Source: a virus (taxonomy: Duplodnaviria > Heunggongvirae > Uroviricota > Caudoviricetes). Taken from it: a stretch of 9,631 bases of DNA. Made by a program: the position numbers and the translations under genes. The notes beneath the pieces were generated by a model. It was not told the DNA's origin and did no database searches. It saw nothing but the letters and a program-made list of their open reading frames with translations. The DNA lies in IMG/VR virus record IMGVR_UViG_2737471845_000027; one strand, written 5' to 3'. How positions within the stretch are numbered: position 1 is the stretch's first letter; each line of letters begins with the position of its first letter. Shown one piece after another: positions 2,185 to 9,218 of the stretch.

Positions 2185-2719
2185 ATTAATAACTCTCTAC
2201 TGTAAGGGTATTAAAATGCTATCACAAACTCTCGCTGTAGGGGTATAGCCGAGACCACCGAGCCTGAAGTGGTAAAAAGACAGGCACACAACACGAAAGC
2301 GCACGGCGAGGCTGTTAGTTCATAAATGGTCTGTCGTTAAATTTACGTCGACCGTGCGCTTCCGGTTGTGGCACTCCGCGAAATGGCGCGGTGGTAAGTA
2401 TGGCGGGGTTATTCATTCCCAGTTGAGGACACCGGGTTGTCAGGTTGACCATACGCTTAAGTGACAACCCCGCTGCAACGCCCTCTGTTATCAATTTTTT
2501 GGTGACGTTTGGCGGTATCAGTTTTACTCCGTGACTGCCCTGCCGCCCCTTTTTAAAGTGAATTTTGTGATGTGGTGAATGCGGCTAAGCGCACGCGGAA
2601 CAGTTAAAAGCATCAGTGTTATGGGTGGATTATCCGGCGTTAATTGTTAACTGGTTAACGTCACCTGGAGGCACCAGGCACCGCATCAACAAAGTTCATT
2701 TGTAAAAATGGAGATAATT
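2185..2719. promoter_or_regulatory. 535-bp non-coding region between divergent sieB and kilR (pL-equivalent position)
   Basis: No ORF longer than about 33 codons on either strand. GC-rich core at roughly 2280..2600. 9-bp inverted repeat gggttgtca (2434..2442) / tgacaaccc (2462..2470). Weak stem then ccccttttt at 2511..2554. Candidate sieB promoter on the minus strand near 2200..2240. Confidence 0.4.
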
Positions 2720-2941
2720 ATGATTGCACATCACTTCGGAACTGATGAAATACCACGTCAGTGTGTGACTCCTGGTGATTATGTTCTTCATGAAGGCCGG
2801 ACATATATCGCCTCGGCAAACAATATTAAAAAGCGAAAACTTTATATTCGTAACCTGACTACAAAAACATGCATTTCTGACTGCATGATTAAAGTCTTCC
2901 TCGGTCGTGATGGTTTACCTGTAAAGGCGGAGTCATGGTGA
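2720..2941 (+). CDS. kilR: KilR, Rac prophage killing protein (cell division inhibitor)
   Basis: Track ORF 2708..2941; GGAG at 2710..2713 is 6 nt before ATG 2720. 73-aa product [16 protein letters not shown]... recognised as KilR. Confidence 0.85.
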
Positions 2942-7035: not shown

Positions 7036-7079
7036 TCCAGCCTGGCGGTGTAATGCACCGCCAACGTGAGATAGTTTTT

Positions 7080-7286
7080 ATGACAAAAACTTTGAGATAT
7101 GACGATGTTAAACCATGTCCGTTTTGTGGTTGTCCATCAGTAACGGTGAAAGACATTTCAGGATATTACCGGGCAAAATGCAACGGATGCGAATCCCGAA
7201 CTGGCTATGGTGGAAGTGAAAAAGAAGCGCTCGAAAGATGGAATAAACGAACCACTGAAAATATTAATGGAGGCGTTCATGTATAA
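7080..7286 (+). CDS. ralR: RalR / Lar (restriction alleviation protein; type I toxin DNase)
   Basis: Internal ATG of track ORF 7053..7286. 68-aa product MTKTLRYDDVKPCPFCGCPSVTVKDISGYYRAKCNGCESRTGYGG... with two Cys pairs, recognised as RalR. Confidence 0.85.
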   Translation: MTKTLRYDDVKPCPFCGCPSVTVKDISGYYRAKCNGCESRTGYGGSEKEALERWNKRTTENINGGVHV

Positions 7287-7467
7287 AATTACCGCTACAA
7301 TTGAAAAGGAAGGTGGCACTCCTACTAACTGGACAAGATATTCAAAATCTAAACTAACGAAATCAGAATGCGAAAAAATGCTCTCAGGTAAAAAAGAAGC
7401 AGGCGTTTCCAGAGAGCAGAAAGTAAAACTGATAAATTTTAATTGCGAGAAACTTCTGTCCTCGTGA
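7279..7467 (+). CDS. ydaC: YdaC-like small protein
   Basis: Track ORF 7207..7467; GGAGG at 7270..7274 is 4 nt before ATG 7279 (MYKITATIEKEGGTPTNWTRYSKSK...). Overlaps the ralR stop by 8 nt. Start could instead be ATG 7267. Confidence 0.65.
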   Translation: MYKITATIEKEGGTPTNWTRYSKSKLTKSECEKMLSGKKEAGVSREQKVKLINFNCEKLLSS

Positions 7468-7573
7468 GTTGCATTATATCCAAATTAGAACTTCATAGCT
7501 GATTATTAAAAATCAATCACGTCCGCCAGTATTCTGTATATTTACTGGCGGTCATATCGTAAGAGGTATGGCA

Positions 7574-7855
7574 ATGAATCTTGTGACACTCAAAACGTGG
7601 GGGAAACTCAGATATCCGGATAATCCACCATCAATATCAACGCTGAGACGATGGGCAAGGAATGGAAACATTTATCCTGCACCTGAACTACACGGGAGGA
7701 GTTACAGGGTGGTTCCGGAGGCTTTCTATATCAACCCAAATAAGGTTGATACCGATATAACACACCATCAGCCTAATGGGCGACAAGGGAGAGACAGTCC
7801 GTTACTGGAGAAGTTAAAACATGCAGCGGAAAAAATACGATCCCAATTTGCCTAA
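7574..7855 (+). CDS. xis: Excisionase (lambda Xis-like)
   Basis: Track ORF 7568..7855; AAGAGG at 7561..7566 favours the second ATG (7574). Motif ISTLRRWARNGNIYPAPELHGRSYRVVPEAF resembles lambda Xis. The 3' end overlaps the int start, as in lambda. Confidence 0.75.
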   Translation: MNLVTLKTWGKLRYPDNPPSISTLRRWARNGNIYPAPELHGRSYRVVPEAFYINPNKVDTDITHHQPNGRQGRDSPLLEKLKHAAEKIRSQFA

Positions 7856-8897
7856 AAACTTAACATATCGAAGGAGGGACAAAGCATATTACTGGCGCAA
7901 CCCTCTGACGAAAGAAGAATTTACACTAGGTAAAATTTCAAGAAGAGATGCAGTAGCGCAGGCAATTGAAGCAAATCATTATATATACAAAAACTACTCT
8001 CCTGCTGCCTTAATTGAAAAGCTTAAAGGGTTCGACTCATTTACTATGGCAGACTGGATTGAACGTTACAAAACGATTCTTATAAGGAGAAAAGTGTCCA
8101 GAAATACTTATAAAATCCGGGTAAATCAACTGGAGACAATAAAAGAAAAATTGGGAGAGATTTTACTGACAGAAATAACCACTCGCCATATTGCCGAGTT
8201 TCTTGATTTGTGGATTGAAGGAGGGAAAAACACAATGGCAGGATCAATGCGTTCTGTGTTGTCTGATATGTTTCGCGAGGCCATTGTTGAAGGACGTATA
8301 TCTCAAAATCCAGTCACGCCAACAAGAGCACCGAAAATAGTAGTTACAAGAGAACGACTGAAACTAAAGACATACAACTGCATCAGGGAGGCAGCAGATC
8401 AACTTCCGGCATGGTTCCCATTAGCTATGGATTTAGCCCTTGTAACAGGACAACGTCGCGAAGACATAACGAATATGCGGTTCAGTGATATTTATGATGA
8501 CCGTCTCCACATCAGGCAAATTAAGACAGGAATGATGATTGCTATCCCTCTGTCACTCAGCCTTCCTGTCGCTGGTCTACGGCTTGGTACAGTAGTTGAA
8601 CGATGCCGCCTGGTAAGCCGGGGAGATTATCTAATCAGTGCCGGGATTAGAAAAAACAGCCCTGACGGCAGCATTCACCCGGATGGCCTGACAAAAAAAT
8701 TTGTCGCAGCCAGAAAATTAACAGGTATCCAGTTCAGTGAAAACCCACCAACTTTTCACGAGATCAGAAGTCTGGCTGGACGATTGTACAAAGAAACATG
8801 TGGAGAAGAATTTGCCCAGCGCCTACTTGGTCACACATCGGAGAAGACAACAAAAATGTATCTTGATGAGCGAGAAAAAACGTACTTACTGCTCTGA
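7821..8897 (+). CDS. int: Tyrosine site-specific integrase (lambda Int family)
   Basis: 358 aa. Conserved blocks [12 protein letters not shown] (Arg), [10 protein letters not shown] (His-x-x-Arg) and [13 protein letters not shown] (His and catalytic Tyr). Last gene before the host junction. Confidence 0.9.
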
Positions 8898-9015: not shown

Positions 9016-9028
9016 TTTAAATACAATT

Positions 9029-9131
9029 AAAAAGAGACCGAATACGATTCCTGTATTCGGTCCAGGGAAATGGCTCTTGGGAGAGAGCCGTGCGCTAAAA
9101 GTTGGCATTAATGCAGGCTTAGTTGCCTTGC
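9029..9131 (-). ncRNA. sdsR: SdsR (RyeB) sigma-S-dependent small RNA
   Basis: Minus strand reads GCAAGGCAACTAAGCCTGCATTAATGCCAACTTTTAGCGCACGGCTCTCTCCCAAGAGCCATTTCCCTGGACCGAATACAGGAATCGTATTCGGTCTCTTTTT, which I recognise as SdsR. 3' terminator hairpin spans 9036..9062, followed by a T-run. Confidence 0.8.
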
Positions 9132-9134
9132 CCT

Positions 9135-9145
9135 TTAAGAATAGA
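9135..9145 (-). promoter_or_regulatory. Sigma-S-type extended -10 element for sdsR
   Basis: Minus strand TCTATTCTTAA, close to the sigma-S -10 consensus TCTATACTTAA, ending 4 nt before the SdsR 5' end. Confidence 0.55.
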
Positions 9146-9218
9146 TGACGACGCCAGGTTTTCCAGTTTGCGTGCAAAATGGTCAATAAAAAGCGTGGTG
9201 GTCATCAGCTGAAATGTT

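Follow-up and report, generated by a model that had tools for sequence, protein, structure and literature searches.

The window, a stretch of 9,631 nt, carries recE, recT, ralR, ydaC, xis, and int in this order, with the ralR-ydaC module at the int-proximal end. The ralR gene (7080..7286, plus strand) is an open reading frame of 68 aa that runs from an ATG at 7080 to a TAA at 7284-7286, and is followed on the same strand by ydaC, the rcbA homologue (DUF1187; 7279..7467, ATG at 7279, TGA at 7465-7467, 62 aa). The two genes overlap by 8 nt (7279-7286) in different frames, and the Shine-Dalgarno sequence of ydaC, GGAGG (7269..7273, plus strand), is located within the ralR coding region, 5 nt upstream of the ATG at 7279. 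The YdaC protein matches Pfam DUF1187 (PF06688) over model positions 1-61 of 61 with 129.5 bits against 20.7, and also matches PHROG 5753 and NCBIfam NF007283. Its K-12 counterpart has 69 aa and reads through the position of the TGA codon that ends the window protein at 62 aa. A preceding sequence-only reading had described a ralR toxin gene overlapped by ydaC, with an overlap of 8 nt and a strong Shine-Dalgarno sequence for ydaC; all of this is borne out by the coordinates and by the protein family matches (NF007260 for RalR, DUF1187 for YdaC). Its summary of RalR as both a restriction-alleviation protein and a type I toxin DNase countered by the sRNA RalA was likewise correct.

RalR is assigned to the NCBIfam equivalog NF007260 with 154.9 bits (cut-off 113), residues 5-68 corresponding to model positions 1-64, and to Pfam Lar_restr_allev (PF14354) with 54.3 bits against 28.6. 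The residues whose change reduced toxicity in K-12 (PMC4041452), namely positions 14, 37, 39, 49, 51, and 52 in K-12 numbering, are all the same in the window protein, and the four cysteines of the CxxC...CxxC motif are unchanged. The two proteins differ at four residues (N5D, A21D, G56E, and N58I, K-12 numbering). By these matches the window RalR would be a small zinc-ribbon protein of the Lar family, reported as a type I toxin/DNase and as a restriction-alleviation factor. The toxicity and the DNase activity of the K-12 protein were observed upon overexpression, and the toxin/DNase assignment comes from one such study (PMC4041452); subsequent studies of RalR and of restriction alleviation were sought without useful result.

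For population comparisons, we aligned 87 Rac-like loci, which included K-12, one RefSeq hit, 6 loci of a species-level genome collection, and 78 IMG/VR records. In the alignment to K-12, the position of the K-12 ralR start codon is occupied in the window by a TTG at 7092, from which the protein would have 64 aa. The TTG replaces the K-12 ATG in 27 of the 87 loci, whereas the in-frame ATG at 7080, 12 nt upstream of the K-12 start, is kept in 86, K-12 included. Thus, RalR may truly begin at the upstream ATG (68 aa), or its start may differ among alleles. Premature stops in ralR were observed in six of the 87 loci (L035-L039 and L041), at sites aligned to window positions 7161 and 7221. Two nonsense mutations of independent origin account for them, one in codon 28 (GGA to TGA) and one in codon 48 (AAA to TAA), counted in the 68-aa frame, and all six loci have the window-type allele background. 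A search of genome contigs with RalR gave 13 loci, eight of them from enterobacterial relatives, and the more distant Lar-family matches in this search (31-36% identity) were without RalA.

To look for the antitoxin, the whole window was scanned against Rfam. The 179-nt RalA family (RF02694) was matched over its full length (model positions 1-179 of 179) at 7285..7463 on the minus strand, with 217.6 bits (gathering threshold 170) and an E-value of 1.5e-52, and the sequence is identical at 176 of 179 positions (98.3%) to K-12 ralA, b4714 (L001:3557-3735). The gene sits antisense, entirely within ydaC (7279-7467), and reaches 2 nt into the stop codon of ralR. In K-12 MG1655, ralA is annotated at 1413556-1413734 inside rcbA/ydaC on the other strand with the same 2-nt overlap, and its placement relative to ralR (b1348) and ydaC is therefore that seen in the window. 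RalA was also found in all six near-identical loci of the species-level genome collection, with 220-225 bits. By alignment, a ralA homologue is unambiguously present in the window, and nothing speaks against its presence. The sequence-only reading had failed to locate RalA and had left it as absent, divergent, or not recognisable to the reader; the alignment with b4714 overturns that failure together with the first two options, and only the third stands, since the region contains no consensus promoter or terminator by which the gene could have been noticed. The lesson for annotation is that RalA is invisible to promoter and terminator consensus, yet covariance models or alignments reveal it immediately. 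The RefSeq feature tables for NZ_CP166713.1 (L002) and NZ_CP028112.1 (L100) contain ralR and the DUF1187 protein but neither the RalA ncRNA nor RyeA/SdsR; of the records that we consulted, K-12 MG1655 is the only one with an annotated RalA.

In K-12, RalA acts through a stretch of 16 nt (nt 63-78, UGCUUCUUUUUUACCU), whose pairing partner within the coding region of ralR is AAGUGAAAAAGAAGCA (PMC4041452). Single changes at RalA positions 63 or 64 weaken the antitoxin activity, four changes abolish it, and matching changes in ralR restore it; the activity requires Hfq, and the level of RalR protein falls when RalA is present (PMC4041452). The corresponding stretch in the window, 5'-UGCUUCUUUUUUACCU-3' at 7386..7401 on the minus strand, lies within ydaC codons 36-41 and is identical to that of K-12. 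Its target at the homologous site of the ralR mRNA, AAGTGAAAAAGAAGCG (7214..7229, plus strand; codons G-S-E-K-E-A), differs from K-12 only at position 7229, where the A of K-12 is replaced by G. The change is synonymous (GCA to GCG), occurs in 27 of the 87 related loci, and converts the terminal A-U pair with U63 of RalA to G.U. In a gap-free complementarity search, RalA and ralR form 10 contiguous Watson-Crick pairs (7219-7228) compared with 11 in K-12, and 14 in both when G.U pairs are counted. A complementarity of 10 nt taken alone is not statistically unusual for such A/U-rich sequence, being reached by 14 of 200 shuffles; it gains weight because it is located at the site that was validated experimentally in K-12. 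Whole-length RNAduplex predictions for ralR mRNA and RalA were dropped, as the duplexes they returned spanned the full length, were unrealistic, and did not surpass those of shuffled sequences. Two IMG/VR loci (L084 and L093) have a 12-nt deletion, aligned to window positions 7394-7405, that removes RalA nt 59-70 and thereby most of the ralR-pairing stretch, and that stays in frame for ydaC. Both carry an intact ralR copy of the K-12 type and represent natural ralR loci without the RalA seed.

The sequence that encodes RalA on one strand shows on the other strand the substitution pattern of a protein gene. Among the 13 polymorphic sites of ydaC with the minor allele in at least three loci, 11 are third codon positions, an excess with a probability of ~2e-4 under a binomial expectation of one third, and one further site is a synonymous first position. 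The pooled pN/pS ratio across the 87 loci is 0.08 for ydaC versus 0.15 for ralR. Intact ydaC frames were also found in divergent homologues with 61-69% nucleotide identity: L009 is from Citrobacter braakii, L010 from a proteobacterial MAG, L096 from a contig whose encoded protein bears the name Klebsiella oxytoca DUF1187, and L097-L099 are from Logan contigs. Their dN/dS is ~0.1, with synonymous sites saturated. In L096-L099, ydaC has no ralR upstream and is preceded by a Dam-type methyltransferase gene or by an unrelated 64-aa open reading frame. The divergent copies retain 22-25 of the 48 Rfam RalA pairs as canonical, which is the same as in slid controls, and score 24-35 bits with the Rfam RalA model; in L009 and L010 the complementarity to ralR is no greater than expected by chance. 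An AlphaFold model of YdaC built with 12 sequences has a beta-beta-alpha-beta fold with a mean pLDDT of 80. Fold searches with this model gave no significant structural neighbour: the best viral match had an E-value of 0.1, and the best PDB match, the phage p56 uracil-DNA-glycosylase inhibitor, had an E-value of 0.5 and a TM-score of ~0.5. We propose no function for YdaC on this basis.

These observations bear on the reading that the YdaC protein is the main product of 7279-7467, that the conservation of RalA is largely a by-product of coding, and that RalA is young and restricted to one lineage. We regard it as likely: the polymorphism pattern, the low pN/pS, the divergent and partly ralR-free homologues, the control-level RalA pairing and chance-level ralR complementarity in these homologues, the natural deletion that spares the ydaC frame while removing RalA nt 59-70, and the AlphaFold model all point to it. 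On the other side stands the study that described the system in 2014 (PMC4041452), which states that ydaC encodes no protein. There, no YdaC was detected from a His-tagged construct, and neither a stop codon in ydaC nor a change of its ATG to ACG affected the antitoxin activity. The neutrality of these mutations shows that the antitoxin is something other than YdaC, not that YdaC is never made. The selection on ydaC together with its presence in prophages that lack ralR indicates that ydaC behaves as a real protein gene, one that both predates and outlives its association with ralR. A structured RalA with a stretch for pairing with ralR is confined to the Escherichia/Shigella group of Rac-like loci. 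This evidence qualifies the non-coding statement of PMC4041452, without conflict with the RNA being the antitoxin, and a leading role for YdaC is compatible with, and does not exclude, a standard ralR-ydaC-ralA module.

A consensus scan of both strands between 6900 and 7700 returned zero promoter-like and zero terminator-like sites, which reproduces the earlier report that no convincing RalA promoter or terminator could be placed. K-12 RalA is likewise without consensus signals of either kind. Reading the sequence directly, we noted a candidate -10 hexamer for ralA, TATAAT, at 7473..7478 on the minus strand, which was not called by the scan. It lies 9 nt upstream of the position (G, complement of 7463) homologous to the K-12 transcription start, which was mapped by primer extension (PMC4041452), and no -35 match is recognisable upstream of it. 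The K-12 hexamer is TACAAT; at the variable position, 7476, 40 of the 87 loci have A and 47 have G. The 3' end of K-12 RalA was only predicted, from a stem of 5 bp, its loop of 14 nt, and four U (PMC4041452), in a paper where neither 'northern' nor 'RACE' appears.

RalA of the window differs from that of K-12 at three bases: U7A, A165U, and G168A. The last of these falls in the predicted Rho-independent terminator region (nt 146-171; 7293..7318, minus strand, placed by homology), which is followed by the tail GUAAUUUU at 7285-7292. It turns the C-G pair 149-168 of K-12 into C.A in the middle of the terminator stem, a position carrying the mismatch mark in the Rfam alignment. The K-12 hairpin has a predicted energy of -7.8 kcal/mol and is missing from the minimum-energy fold of window RalA, in which the expected terminator of a 5-6 bp GC stem, a 14-nt loop, and a U tract was not found. 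This mismatch weakens the predicted 3' end of RalA and does not weaken its homology. U7A falls in the 5' stem-loop region (nt 2-39; 7425..7462, minus strand, by homology to K-12), where pair 7-34 is A.A in place of U-A and the predicted energy of the stem is -3.5 kcal/mol compared with -5.5 kcal/mol in K-12; A165U lies in a loop. The alleles with mismatches at 149-168 and 7-34 occur in 28 and 38 of the 87 loci, respectively, and pairs 5-36, 7-34, and 149-168 are all broken by common alleles. The K-12 hairpins themselves are no more stable than shuffled controls (z-scores of -0.6 and -1.0). A search for covariation in support of the Rfam RalA structure, across the 87 loci and four divergent homologues, gave no convincing case; one sequence shows what may be a replacement of A-U by G-C. 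We read the stem mismatches as variation that is probably tolerated within weak predicted elements.

One could nevertheless suppose that ralA is present and that the RNA made from its window allele is weakened or terminates differently, with antitoxin activity below that of K-12. Such an effect would agree with the C149.A168 mismatch and the loss of the -7.8 kcal/mol hairpin, with the A7.A34 mismatch and the less stable 5' stem, and with a seed shorter by one Watson-Crick pair, all the more as K-12 RalA lost some of its antitoxin function when position 63, which pairs with the altered base, was changed on its own. We consider it unlikely. The change tested there, T63C, gave C.A, whereas the G.U of the window still pairs; the mismatch alleles (38/87 and 28/87) and the G at 7229 (27/87) are common and evidently tolerated; and the -10 hexamer of the window is the better one (TATAAT versus TACAAT). 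Moreover, with K-12 hairpins no better than shuffles and a 3' end that was never mapped, the structure may not matter. An orphan ralR toxin, with RalA missing or diverged beyond function, has a negligible probability, being favoured only by the missing consensus promoter and terminator signals and opposed by the full-length RF02694 match, the 98.3% identity to K-12, and the identical pairing stretch.

We thus consider it very probable that the locus is a standard ralR-ydaC(rcbA)-ralA module of a Rac-like lambdoid prophage, for which the mechanism described in K-12 is expected. Given the 8-nt overlap and the strong internal Shine-Dalgarno sequence, ralR and ydaC, arranged head to tail on the plus strand, are most probably co-transcribed and translationally coupled, and the pair may lie distally in the transcript of the recE-recT early-left operon, at its end. 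As shown for K-12, RalA nt 63-78 would pair, assisted by Hfq, inside the ralR coding region (7214-7229) and lower the synthesis of RalR, so that RalR would be kept in check by RalA pairing; with an identical RalA stretch and one synonymous change in the target, we infer the same mechanism for the window allele. By its position, RalA is also a perfect complement of the 3' half of any transcript that spans ralR and ydaC, and may additionally act on this transcript as a classical cis-antisense RNA.

Joining these elements, we lean slightly towards a broader account in which ydaC is translated, contrary to PMC4041452, and the 390-nt locus comprises RalR, a coupled YdaC, and an embedded antisense RNA that arose recently in the Escherichia Rac lineage and acts both in trans and as antisense. 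YdaC would then be a conserved, translationally coupled protein with a beta-beta-alpha-beta fold. The origin of RalA could lie in the motif G-x-(E/K)-K-E-A, which ralR and ydaC happen to share and to spell with identical codons; the RNA would act in trans on ralR and also as an antisense that matches the 3' half of the ralR-ydaC mRNA perfectly. For curators of the K-12 annotation and users of the RalR/RalA model, the useful point is the purifying selection on ydaC set against a RalA structure without covariation.

A 601-bp stretch of the locus is present in 1922 of 5426 complete E. coli genomes, where it is annotated with ralR, DUF1187, recT, and excisionase genes. The window region 7080-7467 has no identical copy among the fetched loci (87 compared). 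Compared over 7080-7516, its key alleles seem to combine two common haplotype classes, one giving way to the other between 7428 and 7457, a mosaic that suggests recombination within ydaC/ralA. The ralR-ydaC unit is flanked by two GC-rich inverted repeats, neither of which is directly followed by a T run: GGCGGTG-taatg-CACCGCC at 7044-7062, between recT and ralR, is identical in K-12, and CCGCCAGTA-11 nt-TACTGGCGG at 7524-7552, between ydaC and xis, is not conserved there. Elsewhere in the window, the Rfam scan gave a full-length match to the DicF sRNA (2497-2548, plus strand, 71.9 bits, gathering threshold 48), upstream of an open reading frame at 2708-2941 (plus strand) that is by its position a likely kilR homologue. 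An STnc100-like match after DicF (2538-2727, plus strand) is just below threshold with 45 against 47 bits, and in K-12 Rac the sRNA kilS is annotated at the place corresponding to this region.

By every sequence-based criterion except the predicted terminator hairpin, the locus belongs to the known RalR/RalA family, and its differences from K-12 are allelic: (i) the ralR start, (ii) four RalR residues, (iii) three RalA bases, (iv) the YdaC length, and (v) the -10 hexamer. It is nothing new in kind, being a textbook copy of an already described type I toxin-antitoxin pair, which over one third of the complete E. coli genomes carry. The residual point is the evidence for protein coding by ydaC while the RalA structure is not conserved.

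The closest known system is RalR/RalA from Rac, a cryptic prophage in K-12 (ralR b1348, ralA b4714, rcbA/ydaC b1347; Guo et al. 2014, PMC4041452), which has the same gene order and the same overlaps and, like the window, is flanked by recE-recT upstream and by xis-int downstream. The two prophages differ in their integration: Rac uses IntR and a site at ttcA, whereas the window encodes a 358-aa integrase (7821-8897), beyond which lie full-length matches to SraC/RyeA (9025-9169, plus strand, 178.9 bits) and SdsR/RyeB (9029-9128, minus strand, 116.4 bits). In related genomes, yebY-copD come next after RyeA/SdsR, and the prophage is therefore placed at ryeA/sdsR-yebY rather than at ttcA.

Among other type I systems, TisB/IstR-1, ShoB/OhsC, and ZorO/OrzO, whose sRNA antitoxins are encoded divergently or separately, resemble RalR/RalA in the short (16-21 nt), imperfect pairing of the sRNA with the toxin mRNA, and in an antitoxin gene that adjoins the toxin gene and is not opposite the pairing site. 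Their toxins are small hydrophobic membrane peptides, whereas RalR is a soluble, zinc-ribbon-like protein of the Lar family; in addition, and unlike in these systems, RalA pairs inside the coding region and its gene lies within a second conserved open reading frame. A further parallel is yonT/SR6 of B. subtilis (PMC5848175), a type I system with an antitoxin that overlaps the toxin transcript at its 3' end, in which SR6 is fully complementary to the 3' part of the yonT mRNA, as RalA would be if ralR and ydaC form one transcript, and in which SR6, like RalA, overlaps a second, downstream open reading frame. Compared with yonT/SR6, the demonstrated mode of RalA action is the 16-nt pairing in trans.
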